Shown in pieces: positions 21,587 to 52,548 of a stretch of 64,000 nt of DNA (the stretch's first letter is position 1; each line of letters starts with the position of its first letter). The notes under the pieces are model-generated. The model was not told where the DNA came from and ran no database searches. It was given only the letters and a program-made list of their open reading frames with translations. The stretch lies in the IMG/VR virus record IMGVR_UViG_3300021185_003430; one strand, written 5' to 3'. Made by a program: the position numbers and the translations under genes. Origin of the DNA: an uncultured virus (IMG/VR IMGVR_UViG_3300021185_003430). Lineage: Duplodnaviria; Heunggongvirae; Uroviricota; Caudoviricetes.

Positions 21587-22429
21587 ATGACAGAAGAAAA
21601 TAATAAAGGAGAAGAATGGTCGGAATCAGGTAATACAGAATTTAAAGTAGTATTGGGTGATTACGGAACTGTTCCAGAAGATATTAACTATTACATGAAG
21701 AATAGTGAGATGGCGAGATACCCAGAAGTAACGCTATTTGACTTTCTTCGTGATAGACCTGACAAAGAATGGATTAAATTTTGTGAAGAAACGGGTGCTG
21801 ATTTAACTACAGAACGTGACCCTGCACAAGATTACATTGGAAACTTCAACCAGGTATCGGACAATAAAGATAAATGGATTCAGTATATGTTGGATAATGA
21901 AGCAACATGTCAGAAAAAATTTACTGAAAAAAGACCATATCATGCAGGCGTTAACGAGCTTACATTAAACTTGCCAATGAAATGTGGATATAATTGGGCT
22001 AACAATTGTGAATATAATTGGGGTCTGTATGGAGACACAAGTAACCAGATTAAGCAAATGATTGGTCAAGAAATGTTTGATGAATTGGGTATGGATATGG
22101 AAACATGCTTACCACGCTTATTGGCATATTTGCCTGGACAGACATTACCTTTTCACTTTGACTTTATGGGAAACTGGTACAGACTAAATGAACATTTGAA
22201 TCCAAATGCAGAAACACGTAGATGTGATGGCGGTAAGATCGTTAGATACTTAGTGTTTATTACAGATTGGCATTGGGGACATATGTTACAAATGGCAAAC
22301 ACATTTTATCCTAGGTGGAAAAGTGGTGATGTTTATGAGTTACCTGAGCATGTATATCATTGTAGTACAAATGCTGGCATGAGTGTAAAAGTTTCTCTCA
22401 GTTTAACTGGGTACTTACCGGGTACCTAA
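21587..22429 (+). CDS. Cupin/Fe(II)-2OG oxygenase-like protein
   Basis: PGQTLPFHFD (HxD) and distal YHCSTNAG. Confidence 0.55.
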   Translation: MTEENNKGEEWSESGNTEFKVVLGDYGTVPEDINYYMKNSEMARYPEVTLFDFLRDRPDKEWIKFCEETGADLTTERDPAQDYIGNFNQVSDNKDKWIQYMLDNEATCQKKFTEKRPYHAGVNELTLNLPMKCGYNWANNCEYNWGLYGDTSNQIKQMIGQEMFDELGMDMETCLPRLLAYLPGQTLPFHFDFMGNWYRLNEHLNPNAETRRCDGGKIVRYLVFITDWHWGHMLQMANTFYPRWKSGDVYELPEHVYHCSTNAGMSVKVSLSLTGYLPGT

Positions 22430-22434
22430 AAATA

Positions 22435-22443
22435 GTAAATAGT
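22435..22443 (+). promoter_or_regulatory. Late-type promoter motif
   Basis: GTAAATAGT intergenic, heads the 22468-28219 gene run. Confidence 0.4.
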
Positions 22444-22467
22444 AACACAGTACAAGGAAATTTTATA

Positions 22468-22755
22468 ATGCCTATTGAGCGCAAGGACCGTTCTTTTGAT
22501 CTTATCTTTGATCAGGTAAGTATGGATACCATACCTGCTGATTATATCATAGAGGTCACTATCACGTTAGCCGACAACACACAAATGACACTCTATAGAG
22601 ATGATCTAATGATGATAGACGGAGGACAACATGATGCGCTTGGTGGATTGCATCGAGAAGATATGATTGACGTTTCAGTCAAACTTGACTTTGAATCAAT
22701 TAAAGAAGACGTAATATCAGGTGTAGGCGACTACCTTGGAAAATATTTTAAGTAG
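22468..22755 (+). CDS. Hypothetical protein
   Basis: AAGGA RBS, intact ORF. Confidence 0.65.
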   Translation: MPIERKDRSFDLIFDQVSMDTIPADYIIEVTITLADNTQMTLYRDDLMMIDGGQHDALGGLHREDMIDVSVKLDFESIKEDVISGVGDYLGKYFK

Positions 22756-22761
22756 GAAAAT

Positions 22762-23451
22762 ATGAACAACATATGGTTTTGCGGAATTCCTGGAAGTAAA
22801 TGGAGCGGCATAGATATTGTAATGCGACATCTACTTCCAGCAGACCGCTCAGACGAAACTCCAAACAGAACACAATATCATAGACCAAGAACTAAAGAGG
22901 ATGACAACAACGGTCATCGAGGAAGTTATTGGGGACCTGGTATGGGCTGTGGTGAGGATTGGACAGATTTTAACTTTGTTGAACCTCATAAATTAACTGA
23001 TGACATCAACAATGTATTCTCAGGTGATGGATATCGTATTATTAAAAGTCATTTCTTTGCCCGTAATTTTAATCTAGACTATATCTATAATCACTTTCCT
23101 GGTGATTATATATTCCTAGTATATAGGGAACCACAAAAAAGTTTTGCTTGGTGGAGCGAAGTTATGTGTTTTGATGAACTACACTATCCTGATTACAGAC
23201 CAGGCTATAAAAACTACGATAGAATGTGGGAACTACTATGGCAGGAAAGTTCTAAAATAACAGACTTTGCAATGCGTAAAAATATGGATTGGCAAAAGTA
23301 TGATCCTAAAACTTCTTTTAGTACTTTACCAGGCTTTGATAAAAAAGCGGCTAAATACGTTGACAATAGACAACCAGATGTATATACATCCGTAGTAAAA
23401 ATTCCTGGAGAATCTAATACTACATATGAGTTTGTCAAACATCAAACATAG
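22762..23451 (+). CDS. Sulfotransferase/P-loop-fold-like protein
   Basis: N-terminal GIPGSKWS, IIKSH, LVYREP in sulfotransferase-like order. Confidence 0.4.
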   Translation: MNNIWFCGIPGSKWSGIDIVMRHLLPADRSDETPNRTQYHRPRTKEDDNNGHRGSYWGPGMGCGEDWTDFNFVEPHKLTDDINNVFSGDGYRIIKSHFFARNFNLDYIYNHFPGDYIFLVYREPQKSFAWWSEVMCFDELHYPDYRPGYKNYDRMWELLWQESSKITDFAMRKNMDWQKYDPKTSFSTLPGFDKKAAKYVDNRQPDVYTSVVKIPGESNTTYEFVKHQT

Positions 23452-23459
23452 GAAAATTA

Positions 23460-24887
23460 ATGTCAGAAGATCAAAAATTACCCAGTGACACCTTTTGTAT
23501 TTTGCCTTGGATACATTTAAGCACAAGACCAGACGGAAGTATGCGAGTATGCTGTACAGCAAATGCTAGTAGTGTAGGAGCAACCAACGATAAGAAACAT
23601 GGCGGCAGAATTGGAATCGTTAAAACAGAAGACGGAAAGCCAGCCAATTTAAATACTACAGATTTAAGCACCGCATGGAATAATACATATATGCGAGGTG
23701 TAAGGAAAATGATGCTTGCAGGACAAAAGCCAGCAAGTTGTCTAAAGTGTTATAAAGAAGAAGATGCAGGACACATGAGTAAACGCCAATGGGAAACTGC
23801 CTATTGGATGCGTGATGGTATTGATATTGATGAACTTGTAAAAGAAACATATGAGGATGGTAGCACAAATAGTAAACTAAGATATATTGATATCCGTATG
23901 GGTACAAAATGTCAGTTAGGATGCGTAATGTGTTCTCCTCACGATTCAAGTGGTTGGGTAAAAGATTGGCAAGGATTATATCCTAAAATCTCTAACGAGA
24001 GCCTTAAAGAAACTATGGTTTGGGCAAATAAAGGCAAAACATTTGGCGCAAGTTACAACTGGCATAAAGATAACCCAGTGTTTTGGGAACAGTTTTATGC
24101 ACAAATTCCATTCATTAAACAACTATATTTTGCTGGTGGCGAATCAACTGTTATTGACGAGCATTATGAAATCCTAGATAAAGTTATTGAAATGGGATAT
24201 GCAGATCAAATCGAAGTACGATATAATAGTAATGGTATCGAGTTACCTGATAGATTGTTAGAGCAATGGAAACATTTTAAAAAGGTACGCTTCCACTACA
24301 GTATTGACAGTATTGGTGCAATGAATGATTATATTAGATACCCTAGTCAATGGGATCACCAATTGGAAATGTTTAAACGCCTAGATACACAAACAAGTAA
24401 TAATGTAGAAGTTACAATTGCATGTGCAGTGAACGCTCTTAACATTTACTATATTCCAGATTTCCTTAAATGGAAACTAACAGAGAGTGGATTACACAAA
24501 ACAAATATGTGGCCATTTGGTGCAGGTGGTATCAACTATCACTTTGTATATTGGCCAGGACACTTAAATGTTAAAGTACTACCAGATGAATTTATGGACA
24601 AATGTGAAGCCAAATACGAAGAATTTATTGAGTGGTGGAAAGAAAATTGGGAACTAGGTGTTCCTAGTTGGCACAAGGGCAAAGTAACATATGACGAATG
24701 GGAAAATGCAAGCTATGGTATTAAAAGATTGCGTGGAATGATTAGCTTTGCACGTAGCGAAGACTGGACACGCAGACTACCTGAATTTAGAGAATATTTG
24801 ACGAAATTAGATGCCCAGAGAGGCACTGACTTTAGAGCCACTTTTCCAGAGATGGCCTATTTATTAGATGAACCAGAGGATGAATAA
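23460..24887 (+). CDS. N-terminal twitch-domain radical SAM protein
   Basis: FCILPW..RVCC..CLKC; CQLGCVMC; AGGES. Confidence 0.9.
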   Translation: MSEDQKLPSDTFCILPWIHLSTRPDGSMRVCCTANASSVGATNDKKHGGRIGIVKTEDGKPANLNTTDLSTAWNNTYMRGVRKMMLAGQKPASCLKCYKEEDAGHMSKRQWETAYWMRDGIDIDELVKETYEDGSTNSKLRYIDIRMGTKCQLGCVMCSPHDSSGWVKDWQGLYPKISNESLKETMVWANKGKTFGASYNWHKDNPVFWEQFYAQIPFIKQLYFAGGESTVIDEHYEILDKVIEMGYADQIEVRYNSNGIELPDRLLEQWKHFKKVRFHYSIDSIGAMNDYIRYPSQWDHQLEMFKRLDTQTSNNVEVTIACAVNALNIYYIPDFLKWKLTESGLHKTNMWPFGAGGINYHFVYWPGHLNVKVLPDEFMDKCEAKYEEFIEWWKENWELGVPSWHKGKVTYDEWENASYGIKRLRGMISFARSEDWTRRLPEFREYLTKLDAQRGTDFRATFPEMAYLLDEPEDE

Positions 24888-25304
24888 ATGAAAAATATTA
24901 TTACCGCAAGTTTACTTGCTTTATTTGCAACAAGTGCAAATGCAGAAGATCTAACTATTGACATGCTAAACAAGCGTGATGATGGTGCTAAGATGGTATA
25001 TAGTGAAGATATTGCACGTATTGATGTAGGCGATACAATCACATGGTTGCCAACATCAAAAGGTCACAATGTAGAATTTATTGCAGGACCAGATGGATGG
25101 GATGCACCACGTAAATCAAAACTGGGTAAAGAAGTTGAAATGACATTTGATACACCAGGCGTATATTTGTATCAGTGTTCACCACATAAAACAATGGGCA
25201 TGATTGCTATTGTGGTTGTGGGCGATGGAGATAACGATATTTCAAAAGCCAAAGTAAAAGGCAAGTCAAAGAAAAAACTAAAAGCATTGTTAAAGGATCT
25301 ATAA
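24888..25304 (+). CDS. Pseudoazurin (type I blue copper protein)
   Basis: Signal peptide; GHNVEF and CSPHKTMGM copper ligands. Confidence 0.9.
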   Translation: MKNIITASLLALFATSANAEDLTIDMLNKRDDGAKMVYSEDIARIDVGDTITWLPTSKGHNVEFIAGPDGWDAPRKSKLGKEVEMTFDTPGVYLYQCSPHKTMGMIAIVVVGDGDNDISKAKVKGKSKKKLKALLKDL

Positions 25305-25852
25305 TGATATATATCTTAGTTGCATTGGAAGGCGAACTACCTGATCACAGTAGTTTAAATCCTGAAAAATTTAAAGTATGGTATACTGGTGTTGGCAAAG
25401 TCAATGCAGCTATGATGGCAACTCTAGCGGCAGCACAGGACGATTGTTCATTAATTGTTAATTATGGTACAGCAGGTACACTTGTACCTGAGCTTGCGGG
25501 TAAAATATATGATGTAGGCATTGTACGACAGAGAGATATGGATGCTCGTCCACAAGCAGAACTTGGCACAACTCCTTTTGAGAATACTGGATTTGAAGCT
25601 TCATTACGAATTGCTGAAAATAATATGGTGTTATCTACAGGAGATAATTTTGTAATGTCACCACCAGAATTAAATAGTCATATAGTTGACATGGAAGGTT
25701 ATGCTATTGCAAAAGTTGCTGCTGTTTTTAATAAAAAAGTTCGTATTGTAAAATATGCAAGTGATTTTGCAGATGAAAATGCTGCAGAAGAATGGGAAGC
25801 AAATCAGGCCAAGGGTGCTGATCTGTTTTTAGAATTATTTAAAGACATGTAA
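25304..25852 (+). CDS. mtnN: MTA/SAH nucleosidase-family protein
   Basis: GVGKVNAA, NYGTAG, STGDNF, DMEGYAIA, SDFAD. Confidence 0.85.
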   Translation: MIYILVALEGELPDHSSLNPEKFKVWYTGVGKVNAAMMATLAAAQDDCSLIVNYGTAGTLVPELAGKIYDVGIVRQRDMDARPQAELGTTPFENTGFEASLRIAENNMVLSTGDNFVMSPPELNSHIVDMEGYAIAKVAAVFNKKVRIVKYASDFADENAAEEWEANQAKGADLFLELFKDM

Positions 25853-25853: not shown

Positions 25854-26969
25854 ATGGATGCACCTAAGAATTTATGTATATTTCCTTGGGTGCATACCGC
25901 TGTTGATATAGCAGGAGAGCTAAAACCCTGTTGTAGATTTAGTAATAAACCAAACGAATTACCCACTGTTGCACAAGGCTTAAAACAAGGCTGGTCGCAT
26001 GGCGATTATTATAGTAAACTTAGACAGCAGTTTTTAAATAATGAACAACCATCTGGTTGTTCTAGATGCTTTAAGGATGAACAAACATCAGGAAAGAGTA
26101 TGCGTACTGATGCTAATAACACCTATCTAAAAGATAACACATTTACAAAACCCCCTAAACTAAAATTTTTAGAGATGGCATTTAGCCATCATTGTAATCT
26201 TGCTTGTAGAATGTGTAATGAAGGCTATAGTAGCAAATGGCTTGCTATAAAAAGACACACCAACACCCCCCTTACAGAAGATGTTACAGAGGATCTAGAC
26301 TTTAGTATAGACTGGTTTGATACAGATTTATCTAGTATTGAACGTGTAAAATTAGTAGGAGGGGAACCTTTACTTGCAAAACAACACGACGAGTTTATTA
26401 AAAAATTAGCAAGCCAGAGTAGTAATATTAATAAAGTACAAATTGACTATCATACAAATGCAACTATATTGCCTAGCAAAAAGGTACTAGAAACGTGGAA
26501 AAAACTTAAAGCACTTACAATAGTATTAAGTATAGATGGGTATGGTAAATTAAACGAAACACTAAGACCTGGACCGTATAAATGGAAAGACATAGATAAC
26601 ACTTTTAATTTTTATTTAAACTTAAAAGATACAGGTTTCCCCATAACAATGCGTGTACATTTTGTTGTAAGTAGATTTAACATTTTTAATTTACAGCCTT
26701 TATTAGACTATATTGAAAGCAAAGGTACTGGGTATAGTATGGATATTGCCAGACGTCCTTTTCATATGTGTATTGCAAATATGGATCCAAAAGATAAAGA
26801 ACTGGCTAAAGAATATATTAAGAACTTAGATATATATGAAACGTTTAGAAAAAGATTGTTAAATACATTAGAACAGGAATCAGAGAAAACATATACTGAT
26901 GAACAAATTATAAACAAAGAAAAAGTAATAGACAATTACTTTAATCAAGATATAAGAGAACTATTATGA
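25854..26969 (+). CDS. N-terminal twitch-domain radical SAM protein
   Basis: CIFPW..KPCC..CSRC; CNLACRMC; GGEP. Confidence 0.9.
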   Translation: MDAPKNLCIFPWVHTAVDIAGELKPCCRFSNKPNELPTVAQGLKQGWSHGDYYSKLRQQFLNNEQPSGCSRCFKDEQTSGKSMRTDANNTYLKDNTFTKPPKLKFLEMAFSHHCNLACRMCNEGYSSKWLAIKRHTNTPLTEDVTEDLDFSIDWFDTDLSSIERVKLVGGEPLLAKQHDEFIKKLASQSSNINKVQIDYHTNATILPSKKVLETWKKLKALTIVLSIDGYGKLNETLRPGPYKWKDIDNTFNFYLNLKDTGFPITMRVHFVVSRFNIFNLQPLLDYIESKGTGYSMDIARRPFHMCIANMDPKDKELAKEYIKNLDIYETFRKRLLNTLEQESEKTYTDEQIINKEKVIDNYFNQDIRELL

Positions 26970-28219
26970 GCGGATTTTGTGCTTTACCATTTGTACAATA
27001 TAGTACATATAATGGAGGTCGATATAGGCTTTGCTGTATGGCAAAGGAGCCAGAAGAACTTGTGGATCAAGAAAAACTTGGGATCCAGGGTACATGGAAT
27101 CACGACTACATAAAAGATGTACGTAGACGCATGGCAGAAGGGGAGTGGCTTCCTGAATGTGTAGAATGTGAACATCTAGAAAGAAATAATATAGTTAGCT
27201 CACGCCAATGGGAAAATGAGGTGTGGGAAGACGTAATTGACGAAGTGGTTGCTGACGCTTCCGTCAACGATTGGGAGGTTGAACAACCTTTACAATTTGA
27301 TTTCAGGCTTGGTAATTTATGCAATTTACAATGTCAGATGTGCAATAAAGAGGCTTCACACTTAGTAAGTGTCGAGCGAGCGCAAATGGTTGAAAGCGGA
27401 CTCGGGGCAGACCATCCCGATTGGCATGGCATGATTGCAAACAAGAAGCAGGCTCTTCTTCAACCTGGAATAGACTGGGCGAGCTTTGAGGAAATGATTG
27501 GGAAAGCTCGTAAAATCAAACTAATAGGCGGGGAACCTACGGTTGCCAAGGACATGTTTACCTTGCTAGACCTCGCAGTAGAATCCGGACACGCCAGTCA
27601 TATCGAACTTAGTTTCTATACCAATATTACCAATATGCAAGACAGATGGTTAGAACAATTAGGGAAGTTCGAAAAAGTGATTGTAAACTGCTCCTTGGAA
27701 GGTATGGGCGATATGAACGACTATTTGCGTCCACCTTCCAAGTGGCCTTCTGTCTGGAAAAACTTTGATAAACTAGTCAAATATAGCAATACTAAAGAAG
27801 GTAAACGTATTAAAGTACGAGTTACCACAGTCAATCAAATGACAAATGCATTGCATATTGCAGACTTTTGGCGCTTTATGCATGACTACCAAATGACTAG
27901 CGATAGAGGTATTGGTATGAGTAGTAACCAACTTATTGAGCCACACTATTATAGTATGGCACATGCACCACAATGGCTTAAAGATGAACAGGAAAAACAA
28001 ATACTAGAATTTTTATCCAGTATAGGCAATAGTCCACATTTTGAAGACTATGAGGAACCTTTAATGGAAATTATTAATTTTGGTAAAGATCCAGAACACC
28101 AATATAATCCAGCAATAATGAAACAATATGTAGATATAACTGAAAACTATGATAAGTTTCGTATGCATGATGTAATGACAGTGGCACCAGAATTTAAACG
28201 CATAAAAGATGAACTTTAA
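26966..28219 (+). CDS. N-terminal twitch-domain radical SAM protein
   Basis: FCALPF..RLCC..CVEC; CNLQCQMC; GGEP. Confidence 0.9.
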   Translation: MSGFCALPFVQYSTYNGGRYRLCCMAKEPEELVDQEKLGIQGTWNHDYIKDVRRRMAEGEWLPECVECEHLERNNIVSSRQWENEVWEDVIDEVVADASVNDWEVEQPLQFDFRLGNLCNLQCQMCNKEASHLVSVERAQMVESGLGADHPDWHGMIANKKQALLQPGIDWASFEEMIGKARKIKLIGGEPTVAKDMFTLLDLAVESGHASHIELSFYTNITNMQDRWLEQLGKFEKVIVNCSLEGMGDMNDYLRPPSKWPSVWKNFDKLVKYSNTKEGKRIKVRVTTVNQMTNALHIADFWRFMHDYQMTSDRGIGMSSNQLIEPHYYSMAHAPQWLKDEQEKQILEFLSSIGNSPHFEDYEEPLMEIINFGKDPEHQYNPAIMKQYVDITENYDKFRMHDVMTVAPEFKRIKDEL

Positions 28220-29262: not shown

Positions 29263-30095
29263 TTTAAATTTGCAATTCTTTCTTTCATACATAGGTCTGG
29301 ATATATTAAACTACTATCCATTATGTCTGCTTCAAAGCATTGTAATTTTGTACCAAAAACAATCTGATGTGTTATCCACTGTGCATTGAAAAACCAAATG
29401 TCACCTGGATCAAAAGTAATATAGTGTAATGGATGGTGAAACTGATCCCACATTTTATCATTCCATACACAACGATTTCTCATTTCAGTAATAAATGTAT
29501 GTATGTTATTTTTATCAAGTTCTTGTAGATTAAACTCGTCCTTATACTTGTACCACATTTGTTCTAAGTCTGGACCAAATGTTAATACACGTGGGCGTTT
29601 TTTATCCAAATTAACAAACATACGTATTTGTTGTTCTGCGCCAGTGTGTTGTTCGTCTAGTTCATCCAAATGTAGTTTGTTTTCTACCAATGTATTGTAT
29701 CTATGACTAAGCATACGTTCACTTGTATTATATTTGGGGAATATCATATCGAATATTTCGTTCCAGCCATTATTAGACTGTTTATGTTTTTTATGAAATT
29801 TGTCTATTTTATCTTCACTCCAGCCACGTTCCTCACGTAGCCTATCACGTTTTTTAATATGGCTATTGTACCAAGGCATAATCCATTTATTATCCTTAAT
29901 AGTCCAGTCTGGTAAATTGTCGTAATAATCATAGTCTAAATTAGGTATAGTTAAATTTTTAATAACTACTGGCCATCCGCTCTCAAAACACTTGTATATT
30001 TCATCAGATTGTGTTATACTATTGATATCATTTGCATCAAAAACATGTACAGTAAATTCTTGAGCGGCATTGGTGTCTAGTGCAATTCTAGTCAT
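29259..30095 (-). CDS. KdoO (Kdo hydroxylase)-like dioxygenase
   Basis: LHLD, IRMFVNL..PRV, FDPGDIWF, ITHQIVFG resemble KdoO motifs. Confidence 0.6.
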   Translation of the reverse strand: MTRIALDTNAAQEFTVHVFDANDINSITQSDEIYKCFESGWPVVIKNLTIPNLDYDYYDNLPDWTIKDNKWIMPWYNSHIKKRDRLREERGWSEDKIDKFHKKHKQSNNGWNEIFDMIFPKYNTSERMLSHRYNTLVENKLHLDELDEQHTGAEQQIRMFVNLDKKRPRVLTFGPDLEQMWYKYKDEFNLQELDKNNIHTFITEMRNRCVWNDKMWDQFHHPLHYITFDPGDIWFFNAQWITHQIVFGTKLQCFEADIMDSSLIYPDLCMKERIANLK

Positions 30096-30114: not shown

Positions 30115-30130
30115 TATAAATATATTTATC
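30115..30130. promoter_or_regulatory. Divergent late-type promoter pair
   Basis: TATAAATATATTTATC: TATAAATA on + and GATAAATA on -, between divergent genes. Confidence 0.65.
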
Positions 30131-30152
30131 GACAATAAAATTGAGGTATTTC

Positions 30153-46148: not shown

Positions 46149-46369
46149 ATAGACGGAATTGGGGTTTAACGGATATGCGACATAGTGAGCAACCAGAAAT
46201 TAATAAACATTTTGCATGGTTGCCATTTAAAAGCACCAGTGGAAAATTACTTTGGTTTACCTATTACTATCATGAAATAATATATACAAATGTAGAGCCA
46301 AAGCATCGTTGGCGTAATGAAAAGATTTATACAGAATGGGAATACTTTGTTAAAAAGTTAACAGACTAG
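46145..46369 (+). CDS. Hypothetical protein
   Basis: ATGA overlap; FAWLP...LW motif. Confidence 0.6.
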   Translation: MNRRNWGLTDMRHSEQPEINKHFAWLPFKSTSGKLLWFTYYYHEIIYTNVEPKHRWRNEKIYTEWEYFVKKLTD

Positions 46370-47577
46370 TACCAGTATGGTTTAAATTCTGGATATACAT
46401 CTAGTACATTTGTATTATGATATTTGTCTTGCGCCTTTGTATAGGCAACAAATTTATCCCAATACTGATCGTATCTATCCTCACTGTTCATATAGGTAAT
46501 TACATTATACCCATAACGATGTATACGTTCTAGTTTTTGTGGACTTATATTCTGGCTAGTTTTTAACTTAACATAATCATCAAAGTCTTGTGTAATTTTA
46601 GCTTTCATTTCTTTGGGTAATACTTTTACATTGAGTTCGTCTGGATATTGCACCAAACTAGTATGTACTGTGGTTCCCAATTGTAAAAAATATTCAAATA
46701 TTTTATCTAGTCTAGTAATATTGTAATTGTTCACTGTGCATGTCATAGTAATAAAAAGGTTGTCCAAATTTTCCATAACAGTTTTAAGGTTTTTTTCTAC
46801 AACATTAATATCACCTTTTGCTCTAACATAACTGTAGCAATGTCTATCTCCATCAACACTTACTCTTATATCCACTTTTTTAAAATTCTTCCATAAATCA
46901 ATAATACTTTTGCCTTTGTATTCTATTAAGGTCATATTAGTATTATAATCTAGTGTAAGGTTATGTGCATTAGGTAGTAAATTTTCCAAAAACTTGTAAT
47001 GTTTATTATGGTATAACGGTTCGCCGCCAGCTATCATTAAGTGTGTTATGCCTTTAAAAAGAGGTATTTCCCTTATAACATTGTCTGTAAGTCTCAAAGT
47101 ATCAAAACTACGGCTACCTATATTGTGCTTTGTTTCTTCTAATAACTCAGCATTTTTCTTAACCGCATTTTCCCATTGGCTGCTATACTCAGGACTACAA
47201 TGTCTACACATTAAATTACATGCATTGTCAAATCTTGTCTCAATACATTTTACGTGGATTGGATCAATTGTATAATCTTTTCTTGTTATAGCTCTTGCTT
47301 CGTCTTCTGTTATAGCCCACGCCATTTTTTTTGCAACTTCACGTGTACTTGTACTTCCACTATCCTCAAGATCCCAACAACTTTTACATCCCTTTGGGCG
47401 TTCGTTATTAAGAAATGCTTTACGTAATTCTCTTATTTTTTCATCGTTCCATATGCCATGTAATGACTGCTCGCCATATTCTCCTATAGCGCCAGGATAA
47501 CGCCAGCAAGCACTTACTTTACCTTTTTGTTTTAGGTTTAGGTGCGTAAATGGAAATGTGCAATAGGTATTACTCAT
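46366..47577 (-). CDS. N-terminal twitch-domain radical SAM protein
   Basis: YCTFPF..SACW..CKSC; CNLMCRHC; GGEP. Confidence 0.9.
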   Translation of the reverse strand: MSNTYCTFPFTHLNLKQKGKVSACWRYPGAIGEYGEQSLHGIWNDEKIRELRKAFLNNERPKGCKSCWDLEDSGSTSTREVAKKMAWAITEDEARAITRKDYTIDPIHVKCIETRFDNACNLMCRHCSPEYSSQWENAVKKNAELLEETKHNIGSRSFDTLRLTDNVIREIPLFKGITHLMIAGGEPLYHNKHYKFLENLLPNAHNLTLDYNTNMTLIEYKGKSIIDLWKNFKKVDIRVSVDGDRHCYSYVRAKGDINVVEKNLKTVMENLDNLFITMTCTVNNYNITRLDKIFEYFLQLGTTVHTSLVQYPDELNVKVLPKEMKAKITQDFDDYVKLKTSQNISPQKLERIHRYGYNVITYMNSEDRYDQYWDKFVAYTKAQDKYHNTNVLDVYPEFKPYWY

Positions 47578-47833
47578 CTTTTATACTACATTCTTTCTTA
47601 CATATTGTATCGCATTTATCATTATTCCAATGTTCATCATTAAAATGTGTAGTAAAGGCATTGTGTTTGAAAATTACCTCTATATCATGTTTTTCTAAAT
47701 TATTCCAGTCTGGATCAATTTTATTCAACTGTGACAAGTATTCCGAATCTTCCCATTGTTGTAAAACCCAACAACAAGGCCATAATCTATTGTTGAAATC
47801 TACTTGTACTGTTCTTGTTTTACAAAAAATCAT
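47570..47833 (-). CDS. Stand-alone SPASM/twitch domain
   Basis: C..QVDFNNRLWPCC..CKKEC. Confidence 0.75.
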   Translation of the reverse strand: MIFCKTRTVQVDFNNRLWPCCWVLQQWEDSEYLSQLNKIDPDWNNLEKHDIEVIFKHNAFTTHFNDEHWNNDKCDTICKKECSIKDE

Positions 47834-48507
47834 CTTTGTTGGACCTTTAACGTTTCTAATGATTGTAAAAAGTTACCATGCTTGTGTTGTTTTAGGACTA
47901 GTTTAAGTTCTTCTATTAAATTTCTATCTTTTATTTTATGTTCCCATTCCCTATTATTAATAATAGGTTGAAACTTTATATCATAGTTTTTTGCTATTTG
48001 TGAAGCCTCATAAAAGTCATCTATGTTATAATCAAAAATTATAAAATCCCACGATGCATTTCCTCCATTTGTTTTAAATGCAAGCATGTTATTCATTGCT
48101 TTATTATAATCAACATTTACTCTATATTTTTCGTTAGTTTGTTGGCTTGTACCATCTATACTAAAACAAATTTCTAGATTTTCATTTTTTGCATTATGCT
48201 CAAAAAACTTTGCAGTTCTTAATCCTCCATTAGTGTGTATTATAAGTTGTATATTATATCTTTCTGTACAATCAATATAATCTTGTATACGAGGATGCAT
48301 AAGTGGGTCTCCAAAGTCTCCACATAATGCTACTAGTTGTGTTTTATTGGTATATTTTTTTACAACATTTTCAAATGAATTAAAATCTGCATGTTGTAAA
48401 TTTAGGGTGCCATCATTATACATGTGTGTATGTATACAAAGTGGACATTTTGCGTTACAGTGGTTTGTTATAGCAAACTCTATTTTGCTATTTCTCCACT
48501 GTTTCAT
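47830..48507 (-). CDS. Radical SAM core lacking a SPASM domain
   Basis: CNAKCPLC; GDFGDP; TNGGLR; IDG; FDYN. Confidence 0.85.
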   Translation of the reverse strand: MKQWRNSKIEFAITNHCNAKCPLCIHTHMYNDGTLNLQHADFNSFENVVKKYTNKTQLVALCGDFGDPLMHPRIQDYIDCTERYNIQLIIHTNGGLRTAKFFEHNAKNENLEICFSIDGTSQQTNEKYRVNVDYNKAMNNMLAFKTNGGNASWDFIIFDYNIDDFYEASQIAKNYDIKFQPIINNREWEHKIKDRNLIEELKLVLKQHKHGNFLQSLETLKVQQR

Positions 48508-48901
48508 TTTTCATTTCCACATTAATTTTTGCTGCAGACTGTTCAACGCCAGTTACTTCATCTATAACTGCACTACATTCTAAAACACAAAGTTCTGGTG
48601 GATTGTCGCTTTCCCATCCTCTAGGCGCAATAAACTCATCATATATGGGATGCTCAATAATCTCTTCCAGTGAGTATTTTTTGAGATCGTTAAAGTCTGG
48701 TTCTGCAGCCCACATTTCCCAAAATCTTGGATCTTCTTTTTTTGAAAATTCTTTCATATCTGGAGTACCCAATACACTATTTGCATAGTAACAGCAAGGC
48801 CAAACTCTTCCTTGATTATCAACTTCCCATTCCCTTGTATCTTTATTAGGGCCTAGTTCATCTTTTCTCATCGCCATACAAATGATTTTACATTTCGACA
48901 T
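48488..48901 (-). CDS. Stand-alone SPASM/twitch domain
   Basis: C..EVDNQGRVWPCC..CVLEC; GAGG RBS. Confidence 0.75.
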   Translation of the reverse strand: MSKCKIICMAMRKDELGPNKDTREWEVDNQGRVWPCCYYANSVLGTPDMKEFSKKEDPRFWEMWAAEPDFNDLKKYSLEEIIEHPIYDEFIAPRGWESDNPPELCVLECSAVIDEVTGVEQSAAKINVEMKNETVEK

Positions 48902-49535
48902 ATTGATTAGCCTCTTCTAATGCTTCCTGGACTTCTTTTATTTGGTCATCTCTAATTTTACCAAACTCTCTGTGATTAATTTTAAAACAAATGGGAATGC
49001 CGTTCTCTTTTGCCATCTTAGCTGCATATGCTATATGACCAACATTCCATTCAAATATTAAAAAATGCCAATTTCCGTGACCGCCATTTTCAAACCAGGT
49101 TTGCATATTTGTAAATGCACGTTCAAAGTCAACCCCTTCACGATACATCCAGTTTGTATTATGGTCTGTACCGTCTATTGCCCACTCTATATTTAGATCA
49201 TCATATACACGTGCATGTATCTTATACCATTTGGGTTGTCTCAAACCTCCATTAGTATTAATATTAATTTTTGTTGCTTGCTTGAACCCTCTGTCTACAA
49301 ACCTCGAAATATCAGGATGCATCATAGGATCTCCCAATTCTCCACAAAACTCTAATTTATGGAGGGTTACGTCTCTACTATTATTCAACATGAGATCGAA
49401 ATCTTCGTAAGTCATATGTGCAGGCTTAAGCCAACTTGCAGTTGCACCAGTACGCTCGTTTGTTCGCATACAGGATCTACATTTGGCCTGGCAATAGGTT
49501 GTGATTGCAAAATCTAAACTATGTTTGTATATCAT
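48888..49535 (-). CDS. Radical SAM core lacking a SPASM domain
   Basis: CQAKCRSC; GELGDP; TNGGLR; IDG; FEWN. Confidence 0.85.
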   Translation of the reverse strand: MIYKHSLDFAITTYCQAKCRSCMRTNERTGATASWLKPAHMTYEDFDLMLNNSRDVTLHKLEFCGELGDPMMHPDISRFVDRGFKQATKININTNGGLRQPKWYKIHARVYDDLNIEWAIDGTDHNTNWMYREGVDFERAFTNMQTWFENGGHGNWHFLIFEWNVGHIAYAAKMAKENGIPICFKINHREFGKIRDDQIKEVQEALEEANQYVEM

Positions 49536-49549: not shown

Positions 49550-50788
49550 TTATCGTCCACCTTGTGATCTATTCACATAGCTCATTAAGGTATTATAATC
49601 TATTTCGCCAAGTATTACATCTACAATTACTTCATGCTTTTCAAACTCTGCTGGATTATTACGCAACACTTTTACTTTCATAACATCTCCAGGTCTGCTA
49701 TAAATTACTGCCTTTAGTAAAGAGAACGAACTGTAAACACGTTCCTCATTAATTTCCATGATAATATCGCCTTGCATTATGCCCGCTTCAATACCTGCAT
49801 AATCTATTAATTCCTGGCCAATTGTATAGTCTGCGTAAACATAGTAGCGATCTTCTCTCGGTATATCTTTAATATCTTCAAACGTAAAACTGTTAACAGG
49901 AAATGGGTACTCACTGTAAGGCACATATCCCTCTTCTTGATAAGCATCAGTATAAAAATATTTCATTACTAATTCTGCATGTCTAGCGTGTACTGCTAAT
50001 CCTACACCGTCCCAACCTGGAACACTTCTACCAGGGCTGTAAATACTTTGTGCAACACCAATTACTTTTCCATCCATCGAAAATACTGGGCCGCCACTAT
50101 TGCCTTGGTTAATTACTGCATCTACTTGTATCATAAGATTATAAGGGCGTCCACTGCGACCATCATATACAACTTGTCCAGCAGTACTACTCCATGCTAA
50201 TCCCATTCCGTGTCCAATAACAACCACAGGATCGCCTTCTCGTATATCTTTTGGATCAGCAAATTCTAAAGGCGTAAATTTTTCATCTTCTAGTTTTACA
50301 ATACGTAATAATGCAATATCTGCTACAGGATCGTATCCTATAATTTCAACATCATACGGCCACCTTTCCAAGGGGGCTTGTACTTGTAAATTGTATCCTG
50401 TTGGATTGTTAACATAAGATTCTATTACATGATAATTTGTAATAATTGTTGCATCAGTTTCTGTTTCAGACACGAAAAAACCTGTGCCTCGCCCGCCCAT
50501 TGTTTGCTGGCCTGTCTTTGGTGCTACATTTACCAATACAACACTTTTAAAGTTTTCATTTATTACATGTTTAATACGTGCTTCTTTATCAAAACCAGCT
50601 ACGTTAAAAATTGTCTTGTTCCATGCGTATATTTTATCTGCAAGATCAGGATTACTTCCATATAGTGTGACAAGGTGTCCACTAACATATTCTTGTATAT
50701 TTCTCATATAACTTGCTGCAACAATACTGCTCATAACAGTTATAATAAAAAATAAAAAAGCAAGTATTACCTTGGTAATTTTACGCAT
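49550..50788 (-). CDS. htrA: HtrA/DegP-family serine protease with PDZ domain and N-terminal membrane anchor
   Basis: GTGF, TNYHV, DIALL, DAVINQGNSGGP, C-terminal PDZ. Confidence 0.9.
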   Translation of the reverse strand: MRKITKVILAFLFFIITVMSSIVAASYMRNIQEYVSGHLVTLYGSNPDLADKIYAWNKTIFNVAGFDKEARIKHVINENFKSVVLVNVAPKTGQQTMGGRGTGFFVSETETDATIITNYHVIESYVNNPTGYNLQVQAPLERWPYDVEIIGYDPVADIALLRIVKLEDEKFTPLEFADPKDIREGDPVVVIGHGMGLAWSSTAGQVVYDGRSGRPYNLMIQVDAVINQGNSGGPVFSMDGKVIGVAQSIYSPGRSVPGWDGVGLAVHARHAELVMKYFYTDAYQEEGYVPYSEYPFPVNSFTFEDIKDIPREDRYYVYADYTIGQELIDYAGIEAGIMQGDIIMEINEERVYSSFSLLKAVIYSRPGDVMKVKVLRNNPAEFEKHEVIVDVILGEIDYNTLMSYVNRSQGGR

Positions 50789-50810
50789 AGTTCTTCTCCA
50801 AATTCACTAG

Positions 50811-50817
50811 TATTTAG
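50811..50817 (-). promoter_or_regulatory. Late-type promoter motif
   Basis: CTAAATA(CT) on the minus strand, upstream of the GGAG RBS of htrA. Confidence 0.45.
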
Positions 50818-50833
50818 TTGGAGAAATGGCATA

Positions 50834-51832
50834 TTAACCAAGCCCACAACGCTCCTGACATACAGCAAGACATTCTCTGTCTATATTATCAGGCAGTATT
50901 TCTTTATAAAATATATCTTCCATGATCTCCTTAAAGCTTCTATCTTTTAAGTTTATTTTGTCTTTAGGATGATCTAGTTTGCCTTCCCCAAATGGGCTGA
51001 TTCTTTCTGGTACAGTTTTAACTTCAGTTGAGTAGATATAACTACATGGCCAAAGGTTACCTTCCCAATCAATTTGAATCTGTCTTTCTCTATATGCAGT
51101 ACATTTATGGTCGATCCAACCAAAGTCGTTTACAATAGGATATTTCTCTTCAACAATTTTAACAAGCTCTTCTCTAATCTCATCAATATTGTCTGTTCCT
51201 ATTTCATACGCTTCTTTGTCTGTTAAAACTTCCATATCTTCACCTGGAATACAACTGCCACGTAATTCCCAATATGAGAAGCCTAGCTCTATTGCTTTTT
51301 TTCTAGCTATTTCTATTTGGTGTAGGTTATGGTCAAATGCTGTAAAAGTCCAACTAGCTCTGCCGCCAGCTTTTATAAAGGCTTTTATATTTCGTATAAC
51401 TAATTCAAATTTTGTATTTCTTCTATGTAGATGATGTGTATCTTCTAAACCATCAATTGCAAAGTTAATTCTATGATTTCTTTTGCTTAACATAGATCCA
51501 AGTTCTGACCAGAACTTTTCATTTCTTGCTCCACCGTTGGAGTTAATTAATATCTCTGTTTTTGGATGTGCTAACATTGCTTCTTTAACAAAGTCTAATG
51601 CCTTGGGATGCATTATCATGTCGCCCACCGCACCATCAAATAATATTTCTTGTAAGTCTAAAATTTTCGTATCAACAAGTATTTTTTTCCATAGATCTAG
51701 ATCCATATGTTTTAAATCTAGCTCATCTATAGTTTTACCACCCATATGATTGCGTTGGCACCCAGGGCATGCCGCATTACAATAACTTGTAATTTCAACT
51801 TTAATATTATGTGTATTGCCCAACCAATCCAT
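50834..51832 (-). CDS. Radical SAM protein with C-terminal SPASM/twitch domain
   Basis: CNAACPGC; GAVGDM; QIDWEGNLWPC..CQERC; start 51832 by TAATG overlap (51868 also possible). Confidence 0.9.
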   Translation of the reverse strand: MDWLGNTHNIKVEITSYCNAACPGCQRNHMGGKTIDELDLKHMDLDLWKKILVDTKILDLQEILFDGAVGDMIMHPKALDFVKEAMLAHPKTEILINSNGGARNEKFWSELGSMLSKRNHRINFAIDGLEDTHHLHRRNTKFELVIRNIKAFIKAGGRASWTFTAFDHNLHQIEIARKKAIELGFSYWELRGSCIPGEDMEVLTDKEAYEIGTDNIDEIREELVKIVEEKYPIVNDFGWIDHKCTAYRERQIQIDWEGNLWPCSYIYSTEVKTVPERISPFGEGKLDHPKDKINLKDRSFKEIMEDIFYKEILPDNIDRECLAVCQERCGLG

Positions 51833-52548
51833 TAGTCTATTGATCTCAATTCTACTCTTTTTTGCCAAATATTATAAATTCTATTTCCGTTAGGCAAGTC
51901 CATATCTTCATCATGATCCCATCCTTGTTCTAGAATGTCACAATGTAGTTTCTCTGCCCATACATCCAGTAAGTCTTGAGTCCAAGGAAAAAAGTCTACC
52001 CATCTGGCATGTTCATTATTATGCATAAGTCCAGGATTACATCTCCAATAAATTTTACCTCCTGGTTTTACCATTTTTACAACTTTTTGTATTTGTCCTG
52101 TTATTGTATTTTCATCTCCAAAGTTAATACTGCCCAAACACAAAACTACGTCCCATTGTCCAATATCTTTCTTTAAATTTTCTACACTTACTGCTGCATC
52201 TGCATTTGGATTAAAAGGATCAATACCAAATACATTATCTCCAACTAGTTTTTTTACATCGTTATTACCACAACCTATATCTAGGATTTTTGCTTCGTCC
52301 ATTTCTTTTAGTTCATCTATTAAACGTTTTCCTGTGCGTCGAGTTTCAAAGGTTTCTTCATTAGACCAAAAACCCTCGCCACCACTAAAGTATTCTGACA
52401 AAACACACTCATCTATCCAGTAACTCATACGTAATAGAGCGTCCATCATAATTGGATATTCTTGTTTTTTTTCTAATACATTTATTCCATAACGCATTTC
52501 AATAAATTTTGCTAAATCAGGTAAGATTTTAGCATTTATTCTAATCAT
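51832..52548 (-). CDS. Class I SAM-dependent methyltransferase
   Basis: ILDIGCG, GIDP, DVVLCLGSINF, VKPGG. Confidence 0.8.
   Translation of the reverse strand: MIRINAKILPDLAKFIEMRYGINVLEKKQEYPIMMDALLRMSYWIDECVLSEYFSGGEGFWSNEETFETRRTGKRLIDELKEMDEAKILDIGCGNNDVKKLVGDNVFGIDPFNPNADAAVSVENLKKDIGQWDVVLCLGSINFGDENTITGQIQKVVKMVKPGGKIYWRCNPGLMHNNEHARWVDFFPWTQDLLDVWAEKLHCDILEQGWDHDEDMDLPNGNRIYNIWQKRVELRSID

Follow-up and report, generated by a model that had tools for sequence, protein, structure and literature searches.

Several described systems can be compared with parts of the locus analysed here. Stepwise conversion of a hydroxyl to a ketone, an amine and then a guanidine is the route of the streptidine and 2-deoxystreptamine pathways; proteusin-type RiPPs offer a likeness for the decoration of a peptide or protein; and some thymidine hypermodification pathways involve PLP and radical SAM enzymes. 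Published mentions of radical SAM arrays in phages date from 2010, 2017 and 2020, and NCBIfam catalogues the main, N-terminal-twitch family as NF033640 (N_Twi_rSAM). The term "undescribed" used in the earlier note on this DNA thus needs qualifying, although no paper in the literature searched assigns the island a function. The island lies in a window of 64,000 nucleotides (the whole stretch of DNA analysed) from an uncultured giant marine phage, and the contig is phage rather than cellular.

Radical SAM genes of the island

A motif count bore out an island of about 31 kb with 16 CxxxCxxC ORFs: CX3CX2C is present in 16 of the 34 ORFs examined within 20885-53454. PF04055 scored above its Pfam cut-off of 29.5 bits in 14 of these 16; the other two, 35476 (27.3 bits) and 48888 (22.2 bits), were sub-threshold, both with E values of at most 2e-4. 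Among 30 proteins scanned, exactly the ten ORFs previously called N-terminal-twitch enzymes exceeded the curated 170-bit cut-off of NF033640, at 182-417 bits. The motif-bearing ORFs, named by their starts (47830 and 48888 for the two-gene entries), are as follows.

23460..24887, plus strand: N-terminal-twitch radical SAM (NF033640 417 bits)
25854..26969, plus strand: N-terminal-twitch radical SAM (253 bits)
26966..28219, plus strand: N-terminal-twitch radical SAM (294 bits; orthologues and tree)
31220..32263, plus strand: radical SAM, C-terminal Cys-rich (SPASM-like) part (Pfam, motif, NCBIfam)
32244..33311, plus strand: radical SAM, C-terminal Cys-rich (SPASM-like) part (Pfam, motif, NCBIfam)
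33308..34603, plus strand: N-terminal-twitch radical SAM (251 bits; tree)
35476..36726, plus strand: N-terminal-twitch radical SAM (221 bits; tree)
36723..37946, plus strand: N-terminal-twitch radical SAM (306 bits; tree)
41581..42567, plus strand: N-terminal-twitch radical SAM (182 bits; tree)
42560..43615, plus strand: N-terminal-twitch radical SAM (206 bits; tree)
43605..44831, plus strand: N-terminal-twitch radical SAM (387 bits; tree)
44982..46148, plus strand: distinct radical SAM (CNYRCSYC; Pfam, NCBIfam)
46366..47577, minus strand: N-terminal-twitch radical SAM (330 bits)
47570..48507, minus strand: two-gene radical SAM (core 47830-48507, small 6-Cys ORF 47570-47833)
48488..49535, minus strand: two-gene radical SAM (core 48888-49535, SPASM ORF 48488-48901)
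50834..51868, minus strand: radical SAM with C-terminal SPASM (Pfam)

The starts at 32244, 35476 and 43605 are slight corrections of those given before.

Each of the four N-terminal auxiliary cysteines is invariant or found in nine of the ten N-terminal-twitch paralogs, the second being absent from 33308. The N-terminal domain of their profile matched the auxiliary-cluster region of BtrN (E 7e-9), and in the PDB the radical SAM core profile matched the peptide maturase SkfB best (2.8e-12). As proposed, 44982 is distinct, with CNYRCSYC and no place among the ten NF033640 ORFs. Of the five C-terminal SPASM/twitch calls, those for 31220, 32244 (formerly 32250) and 50834 were borne out, but not those for 47830 (225 aa) and 48888 (215 aa), which are core-only. 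The SPASM-like Cys-rich partners of these two are separate downstream ORFs, of which 48488-48901 matched PF13186 (4.8e-5). Because this two-ORF layout is repeated in seven distinct related loci, it is a natural split rather than decay. Consistent with intact paralogs, no frameshifts or stops were seen, and no indel variants were reported in four metatranscriptome runs over 27001-47000.

Tailoring enzymes and other interleaved genes

The following candidate tailoring genes are interleaved with the radical SAM genes.

21587..22429, plus strand: putative cupin/2OG-type oxygenase (HFD motif)
22762..23451, plus strand: putative sulfotransferase-like protein (GIPGSKWSG and YREPQKS motifs)
25304..25852, plus strand: MTA/SAH-nucleosidase-like protein (PF01048 2.7e-14; NF004168 7e-31, below its cut-off)
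28216..29292, minus strand: putative 2OG/Fe oxygenase (HxD...H...RxS in a 12-sequence alignment)
29259..30095, minus strand: conserved cupin-like protein (H142xD144...H243 invariant in alignment)
30141..31217, plus strand: amidinotransferase, AGAT/StrB1/HsvA superfamily (profile against PDB)
34584..35519, plus strand: PLP enzyme, predicted class I/II (amino-acid-type) aminotransferase fold (model pLDDT 88)
37943..39397, plus strand: U1, new-family protein, C-terminal half with a modelled class I SAM-methyltransferase fold
39394..40824, plus strand: U2, U1 paralog (hhalign)
40824..41579, plus strand: Asp/Arg-hydroxylase-family 2OG oxygenase (PF05118 1.3e-9)
51832..52548, minus strand: class I methyltransferase-like protein (ILDIGCG motif, weak Pfam)

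The amidinotransferase was confirmed by profile matches to HsvA (4.7e-40), StrB1 (2e-35), SxtG and AGAT and by its aligned Cys/His/Asp set and MPRD, GGHVDG and GGIHCLTSD motifs. The PLP assignment of 34584 was likewise confirmed by its modelled fold, with a sub-threshold Pfam score (17.6 against a cut-off of 19.7) and with K198 and D170 invariant in the alignment. HisC, CobD and Tyr aminotransferase were the top Foldseek matches of the model (E 2e-10). The best 50 VIA rows (Z 18-20.7) were all class I/II aminotransferase-type entries, the named ones amino-acid enzymes and none a DegT-type sugar aminotransferase, with top matches tied to within about 2 Z units. Judged by this model, the enzyme is amino-acid-type rather than sugar-type, a result new to this analysis.

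The two large paralogs are indeed related (hhalign 100%, E 1.9e-38). U1 had no Pfam match and no PDB match by sequence. The C-terminal half of its model, which is of middling quality overall (pLDDT 66) and has no assigned fold in the N-terminal half, matched 6ulo_B (Z 12.3) and INMT (9.1) in VIA; nearly all of the best 50 rows were methyltransferases, and Foldseek agreed weakly. Also new here, these formerly unknown proteins carry a putative class I SAM-methyltransferase fold in their C-terminal halves. Among 19 long relatives, the U domain is fused to Asp_Arg_Hydrox in five and to Radical_SAM, RibD_C, Methyltransf_24 and GNAT in one each, which ties it to tailoring chemistry.

Other assignments held in part. 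Among the four proposed HxD-H oxygenases, 40824 was upheld by PF05118, whereas 21587, 28216 and 29259 show motif conservation; 21587 has one close orthologue (85%, in locus L017), and the 29259 family, with no match in a sequence search of the PDB, has members at 25 loci in phages and 4 in Bdellovibrionota. The Pfam search returned no match for 21587, 28216 or 22762. The sulfotransferase-like 22762 has conserved motifs, which we take to resemble PAPS-binding motifs, and the methyltransferase 51832 has its ILDIGCG motif but weak, sub-threshold Pfam matches. The 25304 nucleosidase-like family is found in 19 phage loci.

The remaining features discussed below are listed here.

20683..20901, plus strand: conserved small ORF of 72 aa with an acidic tail, heading the left block (tblastn)
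20885..21568, plus strand: conserved protein, phrog_15894 (dN/dS 0.22)
22468..22755, plus strand: small acidic protein of 95 aa, conserved and Cys-free (alignment)
24888..25304, plus strand: cupredoxin (pseudoazurin/plastocyanin-like), Sec signal (PF00127 2.5e-16; signal-like N-terminus)
30116..30129, unstranded: 14-bp perfect palindrome ATAAATATATTTAT within a 45-bp divergent gap
46145..46369, plus strand: small 74-aa ORF rich in W, Y and K that overlaps the 44982 stop (tblastn)
49550..50788, minus strand: HtrA-like trypsin-PDZ protease, N-terminal membrane/signal segment (Pfam, signal prediction)

In the palindrome, which occurs once in the window, a T4-late-promoter-like ATAAATA can be read on both strands; among 16 distinct upstream regions from close relatives, 7 contain this palindrome. 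TATAAATA is found 3 times where 13.2 would be expected, with two of the three intergenic. From its sequence, the palindrome may act as a promoter. A sigma-70-like promoter match precedes 44982.

Conservation in phages and Bdellovibrionota

Orthologues of the island were found at 57 IMG/VR loci and 7 loci in Bdellovibrionota MAGs. The island is therefore not a one-off; predatory Bdellovibrio-type bacteria carry the same gene set. Families co-occur as follows (phage/Bdellovibrionota loci): N_Twi 54/9, SPASM 53/6, PLP 45/7, amidinotransferase 41/8, U family 33/4 and hydroxylase 29/6. Core order and content are kept across phages and partly across the bacterial phylum, where the amidinotransferase still adjoins a 33308-type gene and the PLP gene a 36723-type gene.

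Orthologue searches and an 83-sequence tree support the view that the paralogs are highly diverged yet individually conserved. Window paralogs are never sisters, with the sole exception of 41581 and 42560, and six fall in supported clades mixing phage and bacterial members. The tree shows that most paralogs predate the phage/bacterium split. Orthologues of 23460 are 84-89% identical, and their clade takes in a Bdellovibrionota member; those of 44982 reach 75-87% in phages and 63% in one Bdellovibrionota locus; 25854 has distant orthologues only (23-36%) in related loci.

Neutral evolution was not found: dN/dS was 0.04-0.37 across 19 genes, indicating purifying selection, although the values are rough because dS is near saturation. 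Of the natural variants listed, 38 of 40 were synonymous. Four metatranscriptome libraries yielded near-identical contigs covering 29-30 of 30 bins, although DNA carry-over may explain contigs in RNA libraries.

A candidate pathway and its alternatives

We tentatively favour, at somewhat less than even confidence, the reading that the island encodes a single tailoring pathway that is inherited, works in the cytoplasm and consumes SAM; on this view it neither generates diversity nor gathers unrelated genes. Every protein of the pathway is predicted to be soluble. The assembly line proposed earlier survives as a coherent multi-step pathway, which is likely because paralogs and tailoring enzymes form one conserved block. 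A diversifying role is questionable: for every paralog there is a separate orthologue in other phages and in bacteria, which argues for a fixed series of steps.

It is possible, though unlikely, that the substrate is a nucleotide-sugar or cyclitol edited by the hydroxyl-to-guanidine route, with a product that would decorate the virion or else the envelope of host or prey. In favour, BtrN, a radical SAM enzyme of the carbohydrate type, has a homologous twitch domain, and by sequence 30141 has the inosamine-phosphate amidinotransferase StrB1 as its second-best structural relative. A UDPGP-family gene adjoins the Bdellovibrionota cluster, and elsewhere the phage fragment has phosphomannomutase-like and mannose-6-P isomerase/cytidylyltransferase-like genes. 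Two cultured phages, CP220 and S-SCSM2R, have distant homologues of the amidinotransferase (about 25% identity) amid annotated glycosyltransferases and a DegT/AHBA-type enzyme, which favours a sugar target at least in them. However, a scan new to this analysis found no known glycosyltransferase family, and no nucleotidyltransferase, dehydratase or flippase family, in the island or in the 24 frequent neighbour families that it covered; the PLP enzyme is amino-acid-type by its model; and U1/U2, of predicted methyltransferase fold, gave no hhalign match to the CP220 and S-SCSM2R transferases. The glycan substrate suggested earlier thus has no direct support in this lineage.

Decoration of a ribosomal peptide or structural protein by radical SAM/SPASM enzymes, Asp/Asn-hydroxylase-type oxygenases and methyltransferases is distinctly unlikely. 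It would fit the SkfB match, PF05118, named after protein Asp/Asn hydroxylases, and the two B12-radical SAM genes and proteases on the same phage fragment. The earlier statement that no precursor peptide is visible is almost correct, although the locus does contain three small, conserved ORFs that do not encode enzymes. That at 20683 has tblastn matches in 14 loci (69-80% identity among 8 listed), and 22468 has 9 orthologues (51-63% identity, 34 invariant columns); that at 46145 occurs in just 6 of 23 loci with a 44982 orthologue, adjacent in 5. Among the tblastn matches listed, the 72-aa and 74-aa ORFs are in phage loci only, and neither the 95-aa family nor any small-ORF family of at least 100 aa was found in Bdellovibrionota loci. 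No leader-type precursor was found, the core operon leaves almost no free space, and all solved relatives of the amidinotransferase and the amino-acid-type aminotransferase are small-molecule enzymes.

Improbable, too, is a hotspot accumulating unrelated auxiliary genes, many of them radical SAM, with no single pathway. PMC7029224 describes gain and loss of radical SAM cassettes among related pelagimyophages, and the right-hand minus-strand block has distant orthologues only. Two genes, window-specific or periplasmic, are clearly separate: the cupredoxin, with no match in the 57 loci, is a window-specific insert that probably lies outside the pathway, and the HtrA-like protein, with orthologues confined to 2 of the first 16 loci, probably lies outside the cytoplasmic pathway. 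Against a hotspot stand the conserved core and the tight or overlapping junctions within 30141-44831. Least probable is a side chain built on a phage genome base: thymidylate synthase and DHFR adjoin the island, and the window codes for thymidine kinase, GTP cyclohydrolase I, PRPP-type enzymes and a QueE-like protein, but such genes are ordinary in large phages, searches of the island recognised neither a DNA glycosylase or transglycosylase nor a base kinase, and Bdellovibrionota chromosomes carry the gene set amid housekeeping genes, with up to 19 family copies per genome.

The PLP enzyme is apparently amino-acid-type, and the scan detected no known glycosyltransferase family; for the inherited cytoplasmic pathway we therefore prefer a small polar scaffold, amino-acid-like or other, to a nucleotide-sugar, a preference based on the fold-level likeness of a single enzyme, 34584. 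That a single small scaffold should undergo ten different radical steps has no precedent known to us. Each N-terminal-twitch enzyme would perform one fixed hydrogen abstraction at an unactivated C-H or C-OH, and the outcome could be a carbonyl (the oxidation done by BtrN), an epimer, or a new C-C or C-X bond. The HisC-like enzyme may convert carbonyl to amine, and the amidinotransferase amine to guanidine with arginine as donor. The 2OG oxygenases would hydroxylate, U1/U2, whose relatives include fusions to such hydroxylases, would probably methylate the new groups, and the sulfotransferase-like protein and further methyltransferase may finish the product; step order, substrate and destination are all conjectural. 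The phage would supply its own cofactor economy, with SAM synthetase (MetK) and SufE encoded upstream of the island and the MTA/SAH-nucleosidase-like enzyme within it removing SAH and 5'-deoxyadenosine.

Radical SAM enzymes of the phage island

The window is phage DNA and not a cellular contig, because its clamp-loader gene (62019-62942, minus strand) has 54% identity to that of the Pseudomonas jumbo phage PA5oct and its kin, and because the PHROG and Pfam matches along its length are of kinds usual in large phages (among them thymidine kinase, thymidylate synthase, DHFR, an exonuclease, a virion protein and a QueE-like protein). The closest virus record, G001, which has 93% of the window's sampled words in common with it, is a linear fragment of 91,045 bases with a CheckV completeness of 25%, which would put the whole genome at roughly 360 kb. 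When 21587-46148 was compared with cultured phages by megablast, the island (20885-53454) had no DNA-level match. The island is flanked by nucleotide-metabolism and replication genes, with no recognisable tail fibres beside it. Near-identical DNA over 30141-40100 was present in 19 public runs that held at least half of the words, all of them seawater, marine or aquatic metagenomes and including at least 13 seawater DNA runs and 6 RNA libraries. Several genes outside the island were also recognised, and the first and third of these suggest that the phage may have a 7-deazaguanine pathway.

Genes elsewhere in the phage (L066 is G001 59001-75000)
Window 2300-3001: GTP cyclohydrolase I (PF01227, 5e-37)
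Window 5150-7885: S8 subtilase-family protease, 911 aa
Window 9547-10440: QueE-like radical SAM protein (phrog_2076, 4e-52)
Window 55177-55485: 4'-phosphopantetheinyl transferase (PF01648, 1.2e-10), with no carrier protein recognised nearby
Window 60243-60707: MotA/ExbB-family proton-channel-like protein
L066 12867-14737: OpuAC-type substrate-binding protein and ABC permease (glycine-betaine-type transporter parts)

An earlier note on this DNA had counted 16 radical SAM ORFs in the island, ten of them with an N-terminal twitch domain, and both counts held. Of 34 ORFs located within 20885-53454, 16 contain CX3CX2C, and PF04055 scored above its gathering score of 29.5 bits in 14 of the 16; ORFs 35476 (27.3 bits; ORFs are named by start coordinate) and 48888 (22.2 bits) fell below it, with the motif present in both. 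Ten ORFs exceeded the curated cut-off (170 bits, whole-protein score) of NF033640 (N_Twi_rSAM, "twitch domain-containing radical SAM protein"), with scores of 182-417 bits (in order, 417, 253, 294, 251, 221, 306, 182, 206, 387 and 330), as against 33-44 bits for those of the remaining six radical SAM ORFs that were scanned. All ten carry CX3CX2C about 100-130 residues in, after a four-Cys domain; C130/C134/C137 and C12, C82 and C85 are invariant in their alignment, and C30 is missing from only one of the ten. Positions 5-72 of the N-terminal-twitch profile matched the homologous auxiliary-cluster twitch domain of BtrN (2-deoxy-scyllo-inosamine dehydrogenase, PDB 4m7s/4m7t; chain residues 166-237) with an E value of 7e-9, and the Cys spacing of BtrN presumably resembles the C-x17-C...C-x2-C of the island twitch. 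The domain is C-terminal in BtrN, however, and N-terminal in the island enzymes, among which no BtrN-type layout was encountered. The likeness of the BtrN core to the island radical SAM core is only generic, and the best match of the profile's core was SkfB (2.8e-12). Thus, the four-Cys alignment, the NF033640 scores and the BtrN match indicate that the 'inverted' layout is genuine and has been catalogued before. Membership of NF033640 gives no function, because the family has only been catalogued. Literature searches (supplements outside their scope) found no paper by family name (NF033640, N_Twi_rSAM or "N-terminal twitch"), and none on the island's system under radical SAM with Bdellovibrio and twitch or radical SAM with jumbo phage and SPASM.

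Of five enzymes previously assigned to the C-terminal SPASM type, 31220, 32244 and 50834 do have C-terminal Cys-rich parts, but 47830 and 48888 encode the core alone, with a separate small Cys-rich ORF after each. As seven distinct related loci have this two-ORF layout too, and the phage fragment itself has a further copy of it, we read 47830 and 48888 as natural split enzymes, and the pairs suggest a two-subunit radical SAM/SPASM enzyme.

Two-ORF radical SAM/SPASM pairs
Window 47570-48507: core and small Cys-rich ORF
Window 48488-49535: core and small Cys-rich ORF
L067 (a locus outside the window) 6717-7650: core and small Cys-rich ORF

The sixteenth enzyme, 44982, had been set apart as distinct, and the NCBIfam scan likewise placed it in a different type. 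A 74-aa ORF (46145) was rejected as its obligate partner, being present in 6 of 23 loci. The statement that no precursor peptide was visible stands for leader-type peptides, none of which was found beside the radical SAM/SPASM enzymes, although small conserved ORFs are present at 20683, 22468 and 46145. Five more radical SAM ORFs, two of them B12-type, lie in G001 outside the window, giving at least 21 in the phage fragment. The SufE and SAM synthetase genes listed below plausibly support the many Fe-S/SAM enzymes of the island.

Genes near radical SAM genes or related to their cofactors
Window 12299-13815: SufE (Fe-S assembly, 12299) beside a full SAM synthetase (12712), about 8 kb upstream of the island
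L066 7979-9705 (outside the window): FNR-like FAD/NAD oxidoreductase adjoining a radical SAM/SPASM gene
L067 613-6484 (outside the window): two B12-binding radical SAM genes on either side of a peroxiredoxin

Conservation and possible expression of the gene set

Two IMG/VR scans yielded 16 and 41 phage loci with orthologues of island genes. Orthologues of individual radical SAM paralogs are 50-89% identical to them, whereas paralogs within the window are only 25-33% alike, in line with the high divergence originally noted. The gene order around 30141-44982 recurs as 29259< >30141-(SPASM)-33308-PLP enzyme-35476-36723-U1-U2-hydroxylase...43605-44982, in which the PLP enzyme is 34584, U1 and U2 are 37943..39397 and 39394..40824, and the hydroxylase is 40824. 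Neutral evolution is opposed by dN/dS values of 0.04-0.37 for 19 genes (Nei-Gojobori, against orthologues of at least 60% identity), which are rough because dS was high; 14 genes without such an orthologue and one saturated gene were left out.

The same families are found in bacteria. A prokaryote scan with one genome per species returned eight loci, seven of them in Bdellovibrionota metagenome-assembled genomes, with amidinotransferases of 38-49% identity. One Bdellovibrionota genome has 19 NF033640 matches over the cut-off, 13 of them packed into one 30-kb segment of a 917-kb contig; with rpoD and dnaG no more than about 10 kb downstream of this cluster, the gene set is chromosomal there. 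NF033640 exceeded its cut-off in 31 of 151 sampled Bdellovibrionota genomes and in none of the 14 controls. In an 83-sequence tree, built by a quick search with SH-aLRT support rather than a full bootstrap analysis, the window's ten paralogs were never sisters to each other, save 41581/42560, and six of them (23460, 26966, 33308, 35476, 36723 and 43605) fell in mixed phage and bacterial clades. Support for these clades was 95-100 for five paralogs; for 35476, the smallest mixed clade had 83 and the enclosing clade 96. The mixed clades and the near absence of sister pairs argue that the paralogs are older than the split between phage and bacterium, each keeping its own role. Some Bdellovibrionota proteins of 716-1495 aa join an N-terminal-twitch radical SAM domain to long stretches without a Pfam match.

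Long N-terminal-twitch proteins in Bdellovibrionota loci
L071 2231-6715, minus strand
L072 3452-6058, minus strand
L073 3380-5527, minus strand

Contigs from four metatranscriptome libraries (four studies) cover 30, 30, 30 and 29 of the 30 bins of 27001-47000 with no indels, and 38 of the 40 variant places listed (from a total of 191) are synonymous changes, with 39 falling at third positions. These contigs indicate presence only and RNA libraries may contain DNA, so they are compatible with expression of the island but fall short of proof. The contigs of one run end at both edges of the gap at 30096-30140; another run bridges it, and we therefore claim no transcript start there. The 14-bp perfect palindrome ATAAATATATTTAT, which on either strand resembles the core of a T4-type late promoter, occurs only once in the window, within the 45-bp divergent gap that precedes 30141, and close relatives have it in 7 of 16 distinct upstream regions. 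In the window, TATAAATA is under-represented (3 copies against 13.2 expected) and two of its three copies are intergenic; it was rejected as a conserved element upstream of the amidinotransferase, as the exact sequence occurs in 0 of 29 distinct relative regions and the palindrome is conserved instead. Late expression of the island, drawn from the T4-late-like palindrome and from the depletion and intergenic copies of TATAAATA, is a reasonable guess and no more. Sigma-70 promoter-like matches were no commoner than in shuffles and were set aside, except for one before 44982, as were terminator-like matches, which were only modestly above shuffles and in one half. A CTTGAC(A/T) element with a downstream TATA-like box recurs in intergenic gaps, one copy preceding 44982, and could represent a class of early or middle promoter.

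CTTGAC(A/T) elements in the window
17619-17652
19127-19172
44931-44958
About 58400, minus strand

Tailoring enzymes of the island

The amidinotransferase named in the earlier note, 30141, is well matched to that family. A 17-sequence profile found HsvA in the PDB at 4.7e-40, then StrB1, SxtG and AGAT (PDB 5wpi, 1bwd, 6u1r and 1jdw), with all of which 30141 aligns over its full length and has MPRD, His-x-Asp and GG-x-HC-x-T-x-D motifs in common. Its GGIHCLTSD, GGHVDG and MPRD motifs align with the catalytic Cys-His-Asp set and arginine-binding Asp of HsvA and StrB1, and H221, D223 and C342 are invariant in the 17 sequences. The Pfam ADI model gave only 14.5 bits. We take 30141 to be an amidinotransferase as predicted from sequence; its likeness to the four enzymes is remote, and the sequence does not reveal the acceptor.

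The PLP enzyme that had been noted in the island, 34584, is predicted to have the class I/II aminotransferase fold and to be of amino-acid type. HisC, CobD and tyrosine aminotransferases ranked first in a Foldseek search with its model (pLDDT 88). In a structure search independent of Foldseek, the best 50 rows were all class I/II aminotransferase-type entries (Z 18-20.7 over about 285 residues); the named entries among these 50 are amino-acid enzymes, including the arginine-modifying RohP, GntC, MppP and MppQ with tied scores, and the 50 contain no sugar aminotransferase. K198 and D170, invariant in 21 sequences, are probably the Schiff-base lysine and the pyridine-binding aspartate. By sequence, 34584 scored 17.6 bits with PF00155, below its 19.7-bit gathering score, and its profile found nothing in the PDB under E 0.09.

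The two large proteins U1 and U2 are indeed paralogs, as had been reported, and their family comprises 440 representative clusters. Nothing credible came from comparing 68 members with Pfam, where 0 of the 68 had a methyltransferase match, or three profiles, one of them built from 68 sequences, with PDB sequences, and a search for it among longer proteins (910-2595 aa) gave no match. The U1 model is middling overall (pLDDT 66) and good over residues 280-460, with about 80-92 in the methyltransferase-like part. Residues 259-470 matched 6ulo_B (Z 12.3, 208 residues aligned, rmsd 3.7), INMT (9.1) and PNMT (8.7); nearly all of the best 50 rows were methyltransferases, and Foldseek agreed weakly. 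The C-terminal part of U1 is thus modelled as a class I SAM-methyltransferase fold, with a Gly-rich loop after strand 287-291. D317, the sole invariant residue in the 68 sequences, ends the second strand (312-317). Class I methyltransferases bind the SAM ribose at the end of the second strand, and D317 would be this position in U1. Among 19 long relatives of the U family, Pfam found Asp_Arg_Hydrox in 5, Radical_SAM, RibD_C, Methyltransf_24 and GNAT in 1 each and no domain in 10. The ESM Atlas gave unnamed viral clusters only, plus one lead (0.83) to a cluster bearing PF05118, the family to which 40824, adjoining U1 and U2, itself belongs. The U profile showed no likeness to three annotated glycosyltransferases of the cultured phages CP220 and S-SCSM2R, hhalign giving probabilities below 1%.

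The further tailoring enzymes claimed for the island stood in part. Of four HxD-H oxygenases, 40824 is confirmed by PF05118, and 21587, 28216 (minus strand) and 29259 (minus strand) are recognised from conserved HxD...H motifs only, the 29259 profile having no match among PDB sequences. Likewise, the sulfotransferase-like motifs of 22762 and the methyltransferase motif of 51832 are conservation patterns only. ORF 25304 is MTA/SAH-nucleosidase-like. Export signals are present in the cupredoxin 24888 and the HtrA-like protease 49550, which are absent from or rare in related loci and were therefore treated as auxiliary genes distinct from the rest; the remaining island proteins are predicted to be soluble. 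The cupredoxin gene (24888-25304), encoding a Sec-type signal peptide, has a radical SAM gene on one side and the nucleosidase-like gene on the other, with a counterpart in 0 of 57 related loci.

Scaffold and product of the proposed pathway

The core common to phages and bacteria consists of twitch radical SAM enzymes, the aminotransferase-fold PLP enzyme and the amidinotransferase. From this composition we propose that it would convert C-H or C-OH to carbonyl, then amine, then guanidine, with 30141 transferring an amidino group from arginine to an amine. Hydroxylases coupled to methyltransferase-fold proteins, the sulfotransferase-like protein and clearance of SAM by-products would follow.

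We lean towards an amino-acid-like small molecule as the scaffold, because the PLP enzyme is amino-acid-type, the U paralogs are methyltransferase-like and not transferase-like, and neither the island nor 24 frequent neighbour families yielded a known glycosyltransferase or NDP-sugar enzyme. These same features speak against a sugar or cyclitol, which nevertheless stays a close rival, since the neighbours of the distant amidinotransferase homologues in CP220 and S-SCSM2R include annotated glycosyltransferases, and the bacterial cluster has a UDPGP-family gene beside it. A peptide or protein is a less likely target, as no leader-type precursor was found. DNA is also a less likely target, no base kinase, transglycosylase or DNA glycosylase having been recognised in the island, several ORFs of which have no family.

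Other phages carry comparable gene sets. The Campylobacter phages CP220 and CPt10 have 11-12 radical SAM genes and a module of unassigned function with a putative glycine amidinotransferase (Timms et al. 2010, PMC2853527), and there, as in the island, several radical SAM genes flank one phage amidinotransferase. The CP220 enzyme matches 30141 over 95% of its length at 24.9% identity. Its module follows baseplate genes and includes two GT-A-like proteins and a PAP2 phosphatase; such genes were not seen in the island, where Pfam, PHROGs and NCBIfam recognised no nucleotide-diphospho-sugar-transferase-like gene. Unlike the CP220 module, the island has ten N-terminal-twitch paralogs, a HisC-like PLP enzyme and the U family. 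Large marine phages resemble it in having many radical SAM genes, which the two papers only count or mention, giving no function: 12 in a T4-like marine viral genome (Nishimura et al. 2017, PMC5332604) and cassettes in pelagimyophages (Zaragoza-Solas et al. 2020, PMC7029224). The latter lie in the host recognition cluster, whereas the island lies between nucleotide-metabolism and replication genes. The S-SCSM2R virion proteome contains an amidinotransferase and a hydroxylase, and related genes are called "antibiotic synthesis genes" (2025, PMC12801897). No product is assigned in these four papers.

A wider proposal, which we hold to be rather improbable, is that giant marine phages and predatory Bdellovibrionota have in common an ancient pathway of about 20 enzymes, in which at least 10 distinct N-terminal-twitch radical SAM enzymes would act serially on one amino-acid-like scaffold, followed by amination, amidination, hydroxylation, methylation and sulfation. 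Its product would be a densely functionalised guanidino compound of an undescribed class, used by both attackers of Gram-negative cells in invasion or takeover.

The conserved quartet of amidinotransferase, PLP enzyme and 33308-type and 36723-type radical SAM enzymes narrows the search, and amino-acid-type substrates are now worth considering alongside sugars. Because NF033640 has no studied member, one reconstituted reaction would annotate hundreds of genes. The occurrence of near-identical DNA in public runs and libraries marks the carrier of the island as an abundant ocean virus. Should the island prove to be a single pathway, it would rank with the longest series of distinct radical SAM steps known, and phages and bacterial predators would be linked by a common chemical toolkit.
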